DNA of 64,000 nucleotides. Source: Escherichia coli (GTDB lineage Bacteria; Pseudomonadota; Gammaproteobacteria; Enterobacterales; Enterobacteriaceae). The first letter of the stretch is position 1. The number at the start of each line of letters is the position of its first letter. The stretch is taken from NCBI RefSeq assembly GCF_048403405.1, contig NZ_CP183129.1. One strand, 5' to 3'. The translations under genes were made by a program, and so were the position numbers. Below the pieces are notes generated by a model that did not search any database, had not been told where the DNA came from, and saw only the letters and a program-made list of their open reading frames with translations. Below are positions 3,126 to 10,174 of the stretch, in pieces.

Positions 3126-4157
3126 ATGCAAGTGAAAACACAGTCCTGCGTTGTTGCAGGCAAGAAAACTGTTGCCGTTACCGAGCAGACGATAGATTGG
3201 AATAATAATGGAACATTAGTACAAATAACCCGAGGTGGAATTTGCGGTTCCGATTTACATTATTATCAGGAAGGAAAAGTAGGTAATTTCATGATAAAGG
3301 CACCGATGGTGTTAGGTCATGAAGTTATCGGTAAAGTTATTCATAGCGACTCATCAGAATTACATGAAGGGCAAACGGTAGCCATTAATCCGTCTAAACC
3401 GTGCGGTCACTGCAAATACTGCATTGAACATAACGAGAATCAGTGTACAGATATGCGTTTTTTTGGCAGTGCCATGTATTTCCCTCATGTTGATGGTGGT
3501 TTTACCCGTTATAAAATGGTCGAAACGTCGCAATGTGTCCCTTATCCGGCCAAAGCTGACGAAAAGGTTATGGCTTTTGCCGAACCTTTAGCCGTCGCGA
3601 TTCATGCCGCACATCAGGCCGGCGAGTTACAGGGCAAGCGAGTATTTATTTCTGGTGTTGGGCCCATTGGCTGCCTGATTGTCAGTGCTGTGAAAACACT
3701 GGGGGCCGCGGAAATTGTCTGTGCCGATGTGAGTCCCCGTTCCCTTTCGCTGGGCAAAGAGATGGGGGCGGAGGTGCTCGTAAACCCACAAAACGACGAC
3801 ATGGATCACTGGAAAGCGGAAAAAGGCTATTTCGATGTCAGCTTTGAAGTGTCCGGTCATCCTTCATCAGTGAATACCTGTCTGGAGGTCACTCGTGCAC
3901 GCGGCGTAATGGTGCAGGTAGGTATGGGAGGCGCGATGGCAGAATTCCCAATGATGACATTGATTGGTAAGGAGATTTCACTCAAAGGCTCTTTCCGTTT
4001 TACCAGCGAATTTAATACCGCAGTGTCATGGCTGGCGAATGGCGTTATCAATCCACTGCCTTTACTGAGTGCTGAATATCCCTTCACTGACCTGGAAGAG
4101 GCGCTACGTTTCGCCGGTGATAAAACCCAGGCAGCAAAAGTCCAGCTTGTTTTCTAA
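3126..4157 (+). CDS. idnD: L-idonate 5-dehydrogenase (Zn-dependent dehydrogenase)
   Basis: 343-aa ORF; GICGSDLHYY and GHEVIGKV Zn-ADH motifs; first gene of idnDOTR. Confidence 0.9.
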   Translation: MQVKTQSCVVAGKKTVAVTEQTIDWNNNGTLVQITRGGICGSDLHYYQEGKVGNFMIKAPMVLGHEVIGKVIHSDSSELHEGQTVAINPSKPCGHCKYCIEHNENQCTDMRFFGSAMYFPHVDGGFTRYKMVETSQCVPYPAKADEKVMAFAEPLAVAIHAAHQAGELQGKRVFISGVGPIGCLIVSAVKTLGAAEIVCADVSPRSLSLGKEMGAEVLVNPQNDDMDHWKAEKGYFDVSFEVSGHPSSVNTCLEVTRARGVMVQVGMGGAMAEFPMMTLIGKEISLKGSFRFTSEFNTAVSWLANGVINPLPLLSAEYPFTDLEEALRFAGDKTQAAKVQLVF

Positions 4158-4180
4158 GAGATAAATAAAGGAATAATACA

Positions 4181-4945
4181 ATGAACGATCTATTTTCACT
4201 GGCAGGAAAAAATATCTTGATTACCGGTTCAGCACAGGGCATTGGCTTTTTACTGGCAACCGGCCTGGGTAAATATGGCGCACAAATAATTATTAATGAT
4301 ATTACTGCCGAACGCGCAGAACTTGCTGTAGAAAAACTCCACCAGGAGGGTATTCAGGCCGTTGCCGCACCTTTTAATGTTACTCATAAACATGAAATTG
4401 ATGCCGCCGTTGAACATATCGAAAAGAACATCGGCCCCATTGATGTGCTGGTGAATAACGCCGGTATCCAGCGCCGTCATCCTTTTACTGAGTTCCCTGA
4501 ACAAGAGTGGAATGATGTGATCGCAGTAAACCAGACCGCCGTGTTCCTGGTATCGCAAGCGGTAACTCGTCACATGGTTGAACGCAAGGCAGGTAAAGTT
4601 ATTAATATTTGCTCGATGCAAAGCGAACTGGGACGTGACACCATCACCCCTTATGCCGCATCGAAAGGGGCGGTAAAAATGCTCACCCGCGGCATGTGCG
4701 TCGAGCTGGCGCGCCACAATATTCAGGTCAACGGTATTGCGCCGGGCTATTTCAAAACAGAAATGACTAAAGCACTGGTTGAGGACGAAGCCTTCACCGC
4801 CTGGTTGTGCAAACGGACCCCCGCCGCACGCTGGGGAGATCCGCAGGAACTGATTGGTGCTGCGGTGTTCCTTTCTTCAAAAGCCTCTGATTTCGTAAAC
4901 GGCCACCTGTTGTTTGTTGATGGCGGCATGTTAGTGGCTGTTTAA
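4181..4945 (+). CDS. idnO: 5-keto-D-gluconate 5-reductase (short-chain dehydrogenase/reductase)
   Basis: 254-aa ORF; TGSAQGIG Rossmann motif and YAASKGAV (YxxxK) catalytic motif. Confidence 0.9.
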   Translation: MNDLFSLAGKNILITGSAQGIGFLLATGLGKYGAQIIINDITAERAELAVEKLHQEGIQAVAAPFNVTHKHEIDAAVEHIEKNIGPIDVLVNNAGIQRRHPFTEFPEQEWNDVIAVNQTAVFLVSQAVTRHMVERKAGKVINICSMQSELGRDTITPYAASKGAVKMLTRGMCVELARHNIQVNGIAPGYFKTEMTKALVEDEAFTAWLCKRTPAARWGDPQELIGAAVFLSSKASDFVNGHLLFVDGGMLVAV

Positions 4946-5009
4946 CAGCCACCACCCTACGTGCAGCGCGAAAGCGCTGCTTTTCTGGCACTAATAAGAG
5001 ATAAAGACT

Positions 5010-6329
5010 ATGCCATTAATCATTATTGCGGCAGGCGTCGCGCTGCTTCTTATCCTGATGATCGGCTTTAAAGTTAACGGCTTTATTGCCCTCGTTCTGG
5101 TAGCTGCCGTCGTCGGATTTGCCGAAGGGATGGATGCACAGGCCGTCCTGCACTCTATACAAAATGGTATCGGCAGCACGCTCGGCGGGCTGGCAATGAT
5201 CCTCGGTTTCGGGGCCATGTTAGGCAAGCTGATTTCTGATACGGGCGCGGCACAACGTATCGCCACTACGCTGATTGCTACTTTTGGTAAAAAACGCGTG
5301 CAATGGGCGCTAGTGATCACCGGTCTGGTTGTGGGCCTCGCCATGTTTTTTGAAGTGGGTTTTGTCCTGCTGTTGCCGTTGGTATTTACCATCGTGGCAT
5401 CATCTGGATTACCCCTGTTGTATGTTGGCGTACCGATGGTAGCAGCGCTCTCTGTAACCCACTGTTTTCTGCCGCCACATCCAGGGCCTACTGCCATCGC
5501 GACTATCTTTGAGGCTAATCTCGGAACGACTTTACTGTATGGATTTATCATTACCATTCCGACAGTTATTGTCGCAGGACCGCTGTTTTCTAAACTGCTA
5601 ACTCGCTTTGAGAAAGCACCACCGGAAGGCTTATTTAATCCTCATCTGTTTAGCGAAGAGGAGATGCCCTCCTTCTGGAACAGTATTTTCGCTGCCGTGA
5701 TCCCGGTCATCCTGATGGCTATCGCCGCCGTTTGTGAAATTACGTTACCGAAAACTAACGCCGTGCGCCTCTTCTTTGAATTTGTCGGTAACCCTGCCGT
5801 TGCGCTGTTTATTGCCATTGTTATTGCGATTTTCACACTGGGCCGACGTAATGGACGCACCATCGAGCAAATCATGGATATCATTGGGGATTCTATAGGC
5901 GCTATCGCGATGATTGTGTTTATTATCGCTGGCGGCGGCGCGTTTAAGCAGGTATTAGTAGATAGCGGTGTCGGGCAGTATATTTCACACTTAATGACCG
6001 GAACTACACTTTCGCCGTTATTGATGTGCTGGACTGTTGCGGCGCTGTTGCGTATCGCTCTGGGCTCTGCCACCGTCGCGGCCATTACCACCGCGGGTGT
6101 GGTGTTGCCGATTATCAACGTTACCCATACCGATCCCGCTTTAATGGTACTGGCAACCGGTGCGGGCAGCGTGATCGCATCACACGTAAACGACCCTGGC
6201 TTCTGGCTATTTAAAGGGTATTTTAATCTGACGGTTGGTGAAACGTTGCGTACCTGGACGGTGATGGAAACCCTTATTTCTATTATGGGTTTGCTGGGCG
6301 TGTTAGCCATTAACGCCGTATTGCACTGA
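5010..6329 (+). CDS. idnT: L-idonate/5-ketogluconate/gluconate transporter (GntP family permease)
   Basis: 439-aa highly hydrophobic ORF; position in the idn operon. Confidence 0.9.
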   Translation: MPLIIIAAGVALLLILMIGFKVNGFIALVLVAAVVGFAEGMDAQAVLHSIQNGIGSTLGGLAMILGFGAMLGKLISDTGAAQRIATTLIATFGKKRVQWALVITGLVVGLAMFFEVGFVLLLPLVFTIVASSGLPLLYVGVPMVAALSVTHCFLPPHPGPTAIATIFEANLGTTLLYGFIITIPTVIVAGPLFSKLLTRFEKAPPEGLFNPHLFSEEEMPSFWNSIFAAVIPVILMAIAAVCEITLPKTNAVRLFFEFVGNPAVALFIAIVIAIFTLGRRNGRTIEQIMDIIGDSIGAIAMIVFIIAGGGAFKQVLVDSGVGQYISHLMTGTTLSPLLMCWTVAALLRIALGSATVAAITTAGVVLPIINVTHTDPALMVLATGAGSVIASHVNDPGFWLFKGYFNLTVGETLRTWTVMETLISIMGLLGVLAINAVLH

Positions 6330-6394: not shown

Positions 6395-7393
6395 ATGCGC
6401 AATCACAGAATTTCTTTACAGGATATCGCTACGCTGGCTGGCGTAACAAAAATGACCGTGAGTCGTTATATCCGCTCGCCGAAAAAGGTGGCAAAGGAAA
6501 CAGGCGAGCGCATCGCCAAAATTATGGAAGAGATCAATTATATCCCTAATCGCGCTCCCGGCATGTTGTTGAATGCACAAAGTTATACCCTCGGTATCTT
6601 GATTCCGTCATTTCAAAATCAACTCTTCGCTGACATTCTCGCGGGAATAGAATCCGTCACCTCTGAGCATAATTATCAGACCCTTATTGCTAATTACAAT
6701 TACGATCGCGATTCCGAAGAAGAGTCGGTGATTAACCTGCTCTCTTATAACATTGACGGGATTATACTTTCGGAAAAATATCACACCATCAGGACGGTGA
6801 AATTTCTGCGTTCAGCCACCATTCCGGTCGTGGAATTGATGGATGTACAGGGAGAACGGCTGGATATGGAGGTCGGTTTTGATAATCGGCAGGCCGCTTT
6901 TGACATGGTGTGTACCATGCTGGAGAAGCGAGTCAGGCACAAAATTCTGTATCTCGGTTCCAAAGATGACACCCGCGATGAACAGCGTTATCAGGGGTAT
7001 TGCGATGCGATGATGCTGCATAATCTTTCCCCATTACGCATGAATCCACGCGCCATCTCATCCATTCATTTAGGAATGCAGTTAATGCGTGATGCCCTTA
7101 GCGCAAACCCGGATTTAGACGGTGTATTTTGCACCAATGACGATATTGCGATGGGTGCGCTTCTGCTGTGCCGCGAGCGAAACCTCGCCGTGCCAGAACA
7201 AATTTCCATTGCGGGTTTTCATGGGCTGGAGATTGGCAGGCAAATGATCCCAAGCCTCGCCAGCGTAATTACTCCCCGTTTTGATATTGGTCGGATGGCC
7301 GCCCAAATGTTGCTGAGCAAAATTAAGAATAACGATCACAACCACAACACTGTTGACCTCGGGTATCAGATTTATCACGGTAACACGCTTTAG
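6395..7393 (+). CDS. idnR: LacI-family transcriptional regulator of the idn operon
   Basis: ORF 6383-7393; start chosen at MRNHR (332 aa). N-terminal [24 protein letters not shown]. Confidence 0.85.
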
Positions 7394-7470
7394 GTTATTT
7401 TCTCTGCATTACACATATTCTCTTTGCCGGACGTTGCCTATACTCCAGGCAGGAAACTGGAGGAAATCTC

Positions 7471-8973
7471 ATGAGCGAACCCCTGTTAATTGCCCGCACG
7501 TCGGATACAGAACTGTTTTTATTGCCGAGAATGGCGAATCGTCACGGGCTGATTACTGGCGCAACGGGGACGGGTAAAACCGTTACGCTGCAAAAACTGG
7601 CAGAGTCATTGTCGGAAATCGGTGTTCCGGTGTTTATGGCCGATGTGAAAGGCGATCTGACCGGCATCGCGCAGGCAGGAACGGCGTCGGAAAAACTGCT
7701 CGCAAGGCTTAAAAATATCGGCGTAAATGACTGGCAACCTCATGTTAATCCGGTGGTGGTGTGGGATATCTTTGGCGAGAAAGGCCACCCGGTGCGGGCG
7801 ACGGTTTCGGATCTGGGGCCGCTGTTGCTGGCACGACTGTTGAATCTCAACGATGTGCAATCTGGCGTGCTGAATATCATCTTCCGCATTGCTGATGATC
7901 AGGGGCTGTTACTGCTCGACTTTAAAGATTTGCGGGCGATTACCCAGTACATCGGCGATAACGCCAAATCCTTCCAGAATCAGTATGGTAATATCAGTAG
8001 CGCATCGGTTGGTGCCATCCAGCGCGGGCTGTTATCGCTGGAACAGCAAGGCGCGGCGCACTTTTTTGGTGAGCCGATGCTGGATATCAAAGACTGGATG
8101 CGTACCGATGCCAACGGTAAAGGCGTTATCAATATCCTCAGCGCCGAGAAGCTTTATCAGATGCCGAAACTGTACGCCGCCAGCCTGCTGTGGATGCTTT
8201 CAGAATTGTATGAACAATTGCCTGAAGCGGGCGATCTGGAGAAACCAAAACTGGTGTTTTTCTTCGACGAAGCACATCTGCTGTTTAACGATGCACCGCA
8301 GGTACTGCTGGATAAGATTGAGCAGGTGATAAGGCTTATCCGCTCGAAAGGCGTGGGCGTCTGGTTCGTTTCGCAAAACCCGTCAGATATTCCGGATAAC
8401 GTGCTCGGGCAGCTCGGTAATCGCGTTCAACACGCTTTGCGTGCTTTTACGCCTAAAGATCAGAAAGCAGTGAAGGCAGCGGCGCAAACCATGCGCCCCA
8501 ACCCTGCATTTGATACGGAAAAGGCGATTCAGGAACTGGGCACCGGCGAGGCGTTGATCTCTTTTCTGGATGCGAAAGGAAGCCCTTCTGTGGTGGAACA
8601 GGCGATGGTGATTGCGCCTTGTTCGCGGATGGGACCGGTGACGGAAGATGAGCGTAATGGCTTGATTAATCACTCTCCGGTGTATGGCAAGTACGAGGAT
8701 GACGTGGACCGGGAATCCGCCTATGAGATGTTGCAAAAAGGCTTTCAGGCCAGTACCGAGCAGCAAAATAATCCTCCCGCGAAAGGGAAAGAGGTGGCGG
8801 TGGATGACGGTATTCTCGGTGGATTGAAGGATATTTTGTTTGGCACTACCGGACCACGCGGCGGGAAGAAAGATGGTGTGGTGCAAACAATGGCGAAAAG
8901 CGCCGCCCGCCAGGTGACGAATCAGATTGTGCGTGGTGTGCTGGGGAGTTTGCTGGGGGGGAGAAAAAGATAA
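7471..8973 (+). CDS. yjgR: Uncharacterised P-loop NTPase (DUF853-type)
   Basis: 500-aa ORF; Walker A GATGTGKT near residue 30 and Walker-B-like [12 protein letters not shown]. Confidence 0.85.
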
Positions 8974-8990
8974 GTCAGACGTGATCTGTG

Positions 8991-9032
8991 CCCCTCACCC
9001 TAACCCTCTCCCCAAAGGGGCGAGGGGACCGT
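8991..9032. repeat. GC-rich palindromic intergenic repeat, copy 1 of 3
   Basis: CCCTCACCCTAACCCTCTCCCC-AAA-GGGGCGAGGGGACC; shares the 20-nt core CCTCACCCTAACCCTCTCCC with the copies at 13064 and 36705. Confidence 0.8.
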
Positions 9033-9091
9033 TCGAACTCGTATTTGACTTTGTCAACAATAATAAAGGGAGCTTTCGCTCCCTTGTTAGA

Positions 9092-10174
9092 TTACGATTT
9101 TCTCATTAACAGCCACAGGCTGATTAAGAAGAAGCTGGCGCTTGGCAACAGTGCGCCGATAATCGGCGGGATGCCGTAAACCAACGTCAGCGGGCCGAAG
9201 ATCTGGTCCAGTACGTAGAAGACAAAACCGAAGCTGATACCGGTGACCACACGCACGCCCATCGGTACGCTACGCAGTGGGCCAAAGATAAACGACAGCG
9301 CCATCAGCATCATCACCGCCACGGATAGCGGCTGGAAGATTTTGCTCCACATGTTGAGCTGATAACGTCCAGCGTCCTGACCACTCGACTTCAGATACTT
9401 CACATAGTTGTGCAAACCACTGATGGAGAGTGCATCCGGGTCCAGCGCCACCACGCCCAGTTTGTCTGGCGTGAGGTTGGTTTTCCAGGTGCCGCTCACC
9501 GTCTGCGAACCGGTAATCTGTTTCGGATTGGTCAAATCAGATTCATCAACCTGCGACAGACGCCAGACTTTATGTTCAGGGTCAAACTTCGCGGTAGCGG
9601 CATAGCGTACGGATTGCAGACGACGATTCTCGTTAAAGGCATAAATACTGATGCCACCTAACTCTTCGTCACCTTTAACCCGCTCAATGTAGACGAAGTT
9701 GTTGCCATCTTTCGCCCATAAACCTTGCTGGGTAGAGAGCAACGAGCCGCCGTACATCGCCTGCGCACGGTAGTTACGCGCCATCTGCTCGCCCTGCGGC
9801 GCGACCCATTCACCAATCGCCATCGTCAGCAAGACCAGCGGAATGGCGGTTTTCATCACCGACAGCGCCACCTGCATACGGGTAAAACCAGAAGCCTGCA
9901 TGACTACCAGTTCGCTGCGCTGCGCCAGCATCCCAAGACCAAGCAACGCCCCAAGCAGAGCCGCCATCGGGAAGAAGATTTGCACATCTTTCGGCACGCT
10001 CAGCAAGGTATACATTCCTGCGCCTAACGCGTCGTAACTCCCCTGCCCGGCTTTTTTCAGCTGATCGACAAACTTGATAATGCCCGACAGCGACACCAGC
10101 ATGAACAGCGTCATCATGATGGTGGTGAAAATAGTTTTACCGATATAGCGGTCAAGTACGCCAAAAGGTTGCAT
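9092..10174 (-). CDS. lptG: Lipopolysaccharide export ABC permease
   Basis: ORF 9092-10177; start at the second Met gives 360 aa; multi-pass membrane protein; start overlaps the lptF stop. Confidence 0.85.
   Translation of the reverse strand: MQPFGVLDRYIGKTIFTTIMMTLFMLVSLSGIIKFVDQLKKAGQGSYDALGAGMYTLLSVPKDVQIFFPMAALLGALLGLGMLAQRSELVVMQASGFTRMQVALSVMKTAIPLVLLTMAIGEWVAPQGEQMARNYRAQAMYGGSLLSTQQGLWAKDGNNFVYIERVKGDEELGGISIYAFNENRRLQSVRYAATAKFDPEHKVWRLSQVDESDLTNPKQITGSQTVSGTWKTNLTPDKLGVVALDPDALSISGLHNYVKYLKSSGQDAGRYQLNMWSKIFQPLSVAVMMLMALSFIFGPLRSVPMGVRVVTGISFGFVFYVLDQIFGPLTLVYGIPPIIGALLPSASFFLISLWLLMRKS

Follow-up and report, generated by a model that had tools for sequence, protein, structure and literature searches.

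This study concerns yjgR, a gene in a 64,000-nucleotide stretch of Escherichia coli DNA (NCBI RefSeq assembly GCF_048403405.1, contig NZ_CP183129.1), here called the window. An earlier note on this DNA had singled out its product as an orphan P-loop ATPase. We found that YjgR is an orphan in the sense that no partner gene is conserved beside it, and we present comparative evidence for a probable tether to the inner membrane, formed by its conserved C-terminal tail. The gene and its flanking signals are as follows, in window positions.

7471..8973, plus strand: yjgR coding sequence, from the open reading frame list and its translation; ATG start, 500 amino acids plus stop.
7459..7463, plus strand: Shine-Dalgarno sequence GGAGG, 7 nt before the yjgR ATG, read from the sequence.
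9066..9085, minus strand: terminator-like hairpin with T-run, common to the convergent lptG and yjgR, from the terminator scan.

The 500-residue P-loop protein of the earlier note is encoded by a single intact, ATG-initiated open reading frame preceded by a Shine-Dalgarno sequence. The hairpin downstream has an 8-bp stem with 5 GC pairs and is followed by TATTATTGTT on the minus strand, and a promoter scan around yjgR found no sigma-70 consensus promoter in 7200-9300. Upstream on the same strand lies idnR, which ends at 7393; downstream, lptG and lptF are convergent with yjgR and are followed by pepA, holC and valS. The end-to-end match to Pfam family PF05872, the RefSeq annotation, the presence of the gene throughout E. 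coli and a low ratio of non-synonymous to synonymous substitution (dN/dS) together indicate that this is not a chance open reading frame.

Over the 1.9-kb yjgR region, several RefSeq E. coli chromosomes match the window with 100% identity, and in them the gene is labeled yjgR, "helicase HerA-like C-terminal domain-containing protein". Of 5426 complete E. coli genomes, all but two (5424) carry the gene, in single copy (median one place per genome). Comparison with K-12-like, E. albertii, Citrobacter and Enterobacter alleles gave dN/dS values of 0.04-0.06 (Nei-Gojobori), and the C-terminal 28 codons were equally low (0.04-0.07). yjgR is therefore a constrained core gene under strong purifying selection. 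The allele in the window is 94-95% identical in DNA and 98% in protein to that of most E. coli genomes, and 10 of its 500 residues differ from the K-12-like allele. Its synonymous divergence (dS) from the latter is 0.185, with many synonymous differences; the host thus belongs to a minority E. coli lineage. Among E. coli records, 6 fall at 99% identity or above and 3224 in the 90-95% band; pepA (11541-13052) is about 97% identical to most E. coli genomes, versus 94-95% for yjgR.

The gene, its family and its structure were already known; taken as a discovery, yjgR finds no support, as the PF05872/DUF853 family and a PDB entry exist and ATP binding has been measured. The Pfam model HerA_C (PF05872, formerly DUF853) aligned with residues 5-500 of YjgR over model positions 3-502 of 502 (E=1.3e-253, 842.6 bits), and the DUF87, TrwB, FtsK and AAA models reached only its P-loop or short stretches. 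PDB entry 11kk, "HerA like helicase YjgR", comprises six chains that are about 98% identical to YjgR of the window. E. coli YjgR is the namesake of the family, and the protein described here differs from it in nothing beyond the 10 of 500 residues of its allele. Published work refers to PF05872/DUF853 by the name 'YjgR family of the HerA clade', and a 2022 paper listed DUF853 as having no reported function. A proteome-wide stability assay of E. coli lysate (HT-PELSA) found YjgR "strongly stabilized by ATP", with the stabilized peptides at or next to the P-loop. YjgR appeared in no title or abstract of the searched literature, and no function was reported there. Published data sets touch the gene: it was up-regulated (log2 2.24) when E. 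coli O157:H7 passed through a growth transition, was hit by mutations linked to larger colonies in range-expansion evolution lines, contains RpoH and RpoE holoenzyme binding placed inside it by genomic SELEX (systematic evolution of ligands by exponential enrichment), and is included in a list of the MazF regulon.

The earlier note had read a Walker A motif near the N-terminus and a hydrophobic Walker-B-like segment ending in DE, and both were located precisely, together with further elements of the motor core.

7558..7581, plus strand: Walker A/P-loop GATGTGKT, residues 30-37; regular-expression match.
8254..8271, plus strand: Walker B VFFFDE, residues 262-267; regular-expression match, with E267 as the catalytic glutamate.
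8341..8343, plus strand: R291, candidate trans-acting arginine finger; aligns with S. solfataricus HerA R381 (HMMER).
8374..8388, plus strand: SQNPS, residues 302-306; counterpart of HerA 'SQRPS' without its arginine, from alignments to HerA chains.
7804..8220, plus strand: mostly helical insertion in the ATPase core, residues ~112-250; AlphaFold2 model, predicted local distance difference test score (pLDDT) >95.
8644..8769, plus strand: C-terminal helices of the folded part, residues 392-433 (helices 392-400 and 417-433); pLDDT of the block 87-98.

Conservation was assessed over 47 diverse YjgR homologues. G30, G33, G35 and K36 of the P-loop are at least 95% conserved, and in the Walker B motif D266 reaches 91% and E267, which HMMER pairs with E356 of Sulfolobus HerA, 93%. 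Position 291 is K or R in 89% of the family and K293 is found in 100%. In S. solfataricus HerA, R381 is a trans-acting arginine finger, and its R381K replacement abolishes ATPase activity (PMC4351679). Q302 (87%), P304 (91%) and D306 (93%) are also conserved, and the arginine of HerA SQRPS corresponds to N303 of YjgR, a position that is K or R in only 6% of the family. The family-wide conserved set comprises the P-loop, D58-x-K60-G61-D62, D266/E267, R288, R291, K293, Q302-x-P304-x-D306, R318, H321 and R324. YjgR possesses the superfamily signature of Walker A, Walker B with its glutamate, a sensor-strand glutamine and an arginine finger before that strand. The catalytic set is intact: it consists of the Walker A lysine K36, D266/E267 of Walker B and, where HerA has its arginine finger, R291.

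A single-sequence AlphaFold2 model was unusable (pLDDT 37) and was replaced by an alignment-based run whose input consisted of 47 representatives, 38-59% identical; the latter gave a pLDDT of 89.8 and a predicted template modeling score of 0.85. Residues 1-433 were folded with confidence into a RecA-type core, a helical insertion (helices 112-123, 128-143, 151-163, 165-172, 177-192 and 232-249) and two C-terminal helices. The structural comparison proposed in the earlier note matched this model to HerA, VirB4, TrwB and FtsK folds. Against solved relatives, it scored 28.0 with Sulfolobus HerA, 26.7 with the C-domain of DptH/DndH, 25.6 with VirB4, 23.1 with Deinococcus HerA, 20.7 with TrwB and 14.9 with FtsK (11kk is newer than the structure library used), placing YjgR among solved members of the HerA/VirB4/TrwB branch. 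Judged by these fold matches, the insertion seems comparable to HerA's helical bundle and to the all-alpha domain found in TrwB, and by analogy the helices at 392-433 possibly act like the C-terminal brace of HerA. No N-terminal HAS barrel was found in the model, which has two short strands only (5-9 and 14-17); with just 29 residues before the P-loop, there is no room for one.

YjgR was also compared with known systems. In contrast to canonical HerA of HerA-NurA pairs (e.g. 4d2i, 7f6d and 9x1l), its P-loop starts at residue 30 rather than lying at K154 as in Sulfolobus HerA, it lacks the HAS beta-barrel, the SQRPS arginine and an adjacent nurA, which canonical HerA usually has together with mre11/rad50 (the neighbors of yjgR being idnR and lptG), it shares only 15-19% sequence identity, and it carries an extra linker and amphipathic tail. 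The NCBIfam HerA equivalogs scored below their cut-offs (NF040937, 37.9 bits versus 800; NF040819, 29 bits versus 970). FtsK/SpoIIIE belongs to the same superfamily and joins its ring motor to a membrane anchor through a long low-complexity linker, as we propose for YjgR; the FtsK/SpoIIIE set of FtsK_SpoIIIE motor match, N-terminal transmembrane (TM) domain and gamma domain was not found in YjgR. Unlike VirB4 and TrwB/VirD4, it has no N-terminal TM segment and no type IV secretion system (T4SS) genes nearby, and the family is nearly absent from conjugative plasmids; T4SS models also remained below cut-off (TIGR00929, 19.8 bits versus 643; TIGR02759, 14.8 bits versus 521). YjgR is a stand-alone ATP-binding ATPase that belongs, within the FtsK-HerA superfamily, to the HerA/VirB4/TrwB branch, and it is the founding member of the YjgR/DUF853 family. 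Its diverged relatives, drawn from a search of 50%-identity representatives, form 1673 clusters at that identity (E up to 1e-30).

Beyond the folded part, two further segments complete the protein.

8770..8886, plus strand: flexible linker, residues 434-472; pLDDT drops to 76 and then to ~45.
8887..8970, plus strand: conserved amphipathic basic tail, residues 473-500, from motif conservation; proposed membrane-targeting helix.

In the monomer model, confidence declines beyond residue 433; from residue 458 on it stays under 50, leaving the tail unplaced. Among 34 homologues the linker ranges from 0 to 96 residues (median 39) and is rich in A, K, E, R and S, with no conservation of its sequence. 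The tail, by contrast with this variable linker, has a consensus that, aligned on an invariant arginine, reads R-S-h-G / R-x-V-G / R-E-L-x / R-G-(I/L)-L-G-S-L-K-K (h, hydrophobic). It repeats every four residues (R-x-hydrophobic-G), with a hydrophobic moment of 0.59 at 90 degrees versus 0.43 at 100. Among 86 full-length representatives, 43 possess the strict motif, 20 another basic amphipathic end and 5 a clearly hydrophobic, TM-like end, with 2 more borderline. A core, a variable linker and a C-terminal basic amphipathic motif constitute the family architecture, and E. coli YjgR displays all three.

The earlier note had seen no obvious membrane anchor. This stands insofar as YjgR has no TM segment, its top Kyte-Doolittle 19-residue mean being 1.14; it does not stand for the conserved amphipathic tail, which is replaced by TM-like segments in some homologues, and YjgR is labeled in STEPdb as class F1, a peripheral inner-membrane protein, with cytoplasmic also listed. 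TM-like C-termini in place of the amphipathic tail were found in 12 of 104 sequences, distributed over at least 8 clades of a rough neighbor-joining tree, and most of their nearest neighbors are non-TM; the swap is seen in several cellular lineages and in four phage lineages. They include phages with complete genomes, namely RcZahn gp71, Klebsiella phage N133 gp059, Rhizobium phage RHph_X2_30 and the RcSalem group, with 19-residue Kyte-Doolittle values of 1.8-2.8, and three other phage or prophage homologues retain the amphipathic motif. This comparative evidence suggests that a C-terminal membrane anchor is a trait of the YjgR family, and that the conserved tail of YjgR itself probably tethers it to the inner membrane. 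The membrane-targeting helices of MinD and FtsA are likewise short, basic and amphipathic and located at the C-terminal end of a cytoplasmic ATPase. They have no sequence relationship to the YjgR tail, which is longer, keeps a strict four-residue R/hydrophobic/G period and sits on a long disordered linker; a membrane role of this tail is predicted from sequence.

The TM-tailed phage ATPases of the YjgR family (Rhodobacter RcZahn/RcSalem group, N133 and RHph_X2_30) lie at 3956-5305 of locus L095, 3959-5455 of L096, 1456-2709 of L098 and 1453-2664 of L099. Two architectural variants were also seen: a YjgR core with a C-terminal TerD domain (P0142, with P0152 ending similarly; L094, 123-2042) and a tandem HerA_C gene pair (L086, 2194-4268).

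An alternative is that YjgR is a soluble cytoplasmic HerA-type DNA helicase or translocase for repair or recombination, whose tail, instead of binding membrane, would bind DNA or RNA, recruit a partner encoded elsewhere, or act as an autoinhibitory plug. The depositors of 11kk named it a 'HerA like helicase', its closest folds are HerA proteins that process DNA ends, an arginine at every fourth residue of the tail would suit contacts with a phosphate backbone, and STEPdb gives a cytoplasmic location as well. Some phage homologues moreover are surrounded by genes for replication and recombination, namely Cas4, RuvC and ligase in RcZahn and SNF2 and HNH in L088. However, NurA or another nuclease was not found nearby in any sampled lineage, YjgR lacks the HAS barrel, STEPdb also gives the peripheral-membrane class, and the repeated swap of the tail for hydrophobic TM-like segments is hard to explain by nucleic-acid binding. 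We consider this alternative plausible but less likely than a membrane-tethered motor, and it is the one to be taken most seriously among those weighed here.

We surveyed the genomic context of yjgR homologues at 80 fetched loci from Enterobacterales, many Betaproteobacteria, other Gamma- and Alphaproteobacteria, Acidobacteriota, Verrucomicrobiota, Planctomycetota, Spirochaetes and Clostridia; flanking open reading frames were clustered over 89 loci, and about 100 homologous loci were checked in all. No recurrent partner gene was found beside yjgR in E. coli or beside its homologues in these ~100 loci from other taxa. The only large neighbor clusters were YebC, PurD, RsfS, RlmH, Maf and RNase G, all in Burkholderiales-type loci. 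As candidate partners, divergent yebC followed by purD, rsfS-rlmH-maf and rng (35 loci) were rejected because all of these loci come from Burkholderiales or other betaproteobacteria, indicating lineage housekeeping synteny. Immediate neighbors in 20 diverse genomes were unrelated metabolic genes (among them PpiA, CbiB-like, ArgC, PrxQ, MetC, a flavohaemoprotein, an M20 peptidase and GGDEF-EAL), and twelve metagenomic look-ups with Pfam-annotated neighbors gave heterogeneous contexts. Recurrences near homologues were sporadic: DUF2780 twice, Maf twice, Tad-like genes twice, one tandem duplicate and one TerD fusion. Maf was dismissed as a partner because it adjoins a homologue in two unrelated contigs only and otherwise lies about 5 kb off within the same betaproteobacterial block, and DUF2780 because it is adjacent in only 2 of 89 loci. 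The DUF2780 (PF11075) protein, small and Gly-rich, adjoins two distant homologues in different orientations (L082, 2256-2651, plus strand; L087, 53-454, minus strand) and is absent from the other 87 loci.

YjgR is thus an orphan without conserved partner genes. The neighborhood check proposed in the earlier note bore out its view of a stand-alone HerA/FtsK/VirB4-type P-loop ATPase, in E. coli as in the other loci. The note had also stated that no cognate nuclease, helicase or transporter gene lay nearby, and the neighbors agree with it. No nuclease or helicase gene was found beside E. coli yjgR, and no nuclease cluster emerged in the 89 loci; the adjacent lptGF do encode a transporter, a lipopolysaccharide (LPS) export permease, but they adjoin yjgR only in Escherichia, Citrobacter and one Enterobacter. 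The note had named two observations that together would count against its proposal, homologues that never have conserved neighbors and a known housekeeping role; the former was made, and no housekeeping role is known.

The neighbor survey takes support away from secretion and conjugation readings, in which YjgR would be the detached motor of a secretion, conjugation or envelope-transport machine, e.g. one that serves LptFG or a Tad/T4SS apparatus. In its favor, the best fold matches include VirB4 and TrwB, lptGF lies immediately downstream of E. coli yjgR, one distant homologue is near lptB-rpoN-hpf and two are near Tad-like genes. Yet lptGF is convergent, its adjacency to yjgR is confined to Escherichia, Citrobacter and one Enterobacter (Ag1), and lptB-rpoN is found beside a homologue at just 1 of 104 loci. 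LptFG already has an ATPase, namely LptB. The NCBIfam VirB4, TraC and TraD models scored 15-32 bits against cut-offs above 500. In a survey of 72,556 plasmid records only 31 had a YjgR homologue; most of the 31 are Mb-sized replicons and a single one is conjugative, which led us to reject the conjugation reading. Homologues were also found in 31 of 50,697 phage records. The link to Lpt was rejected because it is limited to a few enteric genera and one metagenomic contig. We regard the detached-motor explanation as very unlikely. The distant homologue in question sits upstream of genes for an lptB-like ABC ATPase, rpoN and hpf, at a distance of about 0.8 kb (L104, 756-5351), and E. coli yjgR abuts lptGF (9092-11274); these links to LPS-export genes are unrelated to each other, did not recur in about 100 other loci and are probably due to chance.

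An anti-phage defense ATPase, comparable to Mad8 of MADS or to HerA proteins that pair with SIR2 and DUF4297 effectors, was considered as well. The PADLOC mad8 model matched residues 23-366 (E=1.4e-19), HerA defense models matched weakly, a YjgR domain has been reported beside a UG12 reverse transcriptase, and the leuX island 6 kb upstream of yjgR carries a BREX (bacteriophage exclusion) system in an identical strain. But the mad8 match amounts to 68.8 bits over part of the protein, versus 843 bits for PF05872, and the NCBIfam anti-phage HerA models NF042943 and NF042944 gave 17-20 bits versus cut-offs of 800-850. No effector is adjacent in any sampled lineage, and yjgR is a core gene (5424 of 5426 E. 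coli genomes) at a fixed idnR-lptG locus rather than an island gene. Core-gene status and sub-threshold model scores led us to reject this reading, to which we attach hardly any credence.

Taken together, the explanation that best joins these observations is that YjgR is a membrane-tethered hexameric translocase of the HerA branch that works without partner genes, and we favor it with slightly better than even confidence. By analogy with its structural relatives, and in keeping with the six chains of 11kk and the conserved position of the trans-acting arginine, YjgR would assemble into a hexamer. ATP would be hydrolyzed at the subunit interfaces, with R291 acting in trans, and hydrolysis would drive a polymer through the central pore. 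Up to six C-terminal amphipathic, Arg-rich helices (residues ~473-500), borne on disordered linkers of some 40 residues apiece, would tie the motor to the cytoplasmic face of the inner membrane. Such a layout would be that of FtsK reversed, with anchor-linker-motor becoming motor-linker-anchor. DNA would be the first guess for the substrate, by analogy with HerA, FtsK, TrwB, CedB and TdtA and given that some phage copies lie among genes for replication and recombination; of all the steps, this one is the weakest.

Several observations weigh against this membrane-tethered translocase. The missing SQRPS arginine means that details of mechanism may differ from HerA, and the hexamer is drawn from relatives and from the six chains of 11kk. 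The period of the tail is 4.0, with its moment peaking at 90 rather than 100 degrees, and its arginine stripe would suit a nucleic acid or a partner protein equally well. The Heliquest-type lipid-binding discriminant of residues 483-500 (1.64 versus a threshold of 1.34, and comparable to 1.57 for FtsA) is non-specific, some windows of the YjgR core scoring equally high, and shows compatibility only. Frameshift artefacts could account for some of the TM-like tails, namely those on short metagenomic contigs. The membrane class in STEPdb is taken as a database label only, and YjgR was absent from three membrane-proteome supplements.

A few other features near the locus were recorded.

8990..9029, strand not assigned: GC-rich imperfect palindromic repeat of 40 bp, GCCCCTCACCCTAACCCTCTCCCCAAAGGGGCGAGGGGAC, in the yjgR-lptG spacer outside the gene; single copy in the window.

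With the yjgR flanks added to the query, the number of places matched per E. coli genome rose from 1 to a median of 5, which identifies this element as a dispersed intergenic repeat; we presume that it resembles a BoxC-type element. Rfam RF02850 'Ysr276', a Yersinia antisense small RNA, matched at 12099-12293 on the minus strand, antisense to the pepA coding sequence (184.6 bits versus a gathering threshold of 100). A 16-codon small protein, YtgA, is annotated by RefSeq between lptF and pepA (L001, 16038-16088; ~11337-11387 in the window). A leuX-type tRNA-Leu(CAA) lies at 1043-1127 on the minus strand, 6 kb upstream of yjgR. In strain TUM14771, which is 100% identical over the 1.9-kb yjgR query, a frameshifted integrase and BREX stand just beyond the leuX-type tRNA, so that the window begins at the edge of an integration hotspot.

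What this analysis adds to the known gene, family and structure is a systematic negative result for partner genes, the mapping of the arginine finger, the missing HAS barrel and SQRPS arginine, and comparative evidence for a tail anchor. yjgR is an E. coli gene of unknown function that is conserved throughout the species and strongly constrained. Motors of the HerA/FtsK clade are nearly all defined by a partner, whether a nuclease, a secretion channel or a defense effector, and a member without one marks a gap in knowledge; reading YjgR as membrane-tethered narrows the search for its substrate. More tentatively, and with real doubt, we suggest that the YjgR family may represent a widespread 'inverted FtsK', a minimal ring motor of the HerA clade with a C-terminal anchor (an R-x-hydrophobic-G helix or a tail-anchor TM helix) that would work in bacteria and in several lineages of phage, without partners and close to the membrane, to translocate DNA or some other polymer. 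If so, its activity would be a housekeeping role so far missed by genetics, and the four-residue-periodic R-x-hydrophobic-G anchor would be of a kind previously undescribed.

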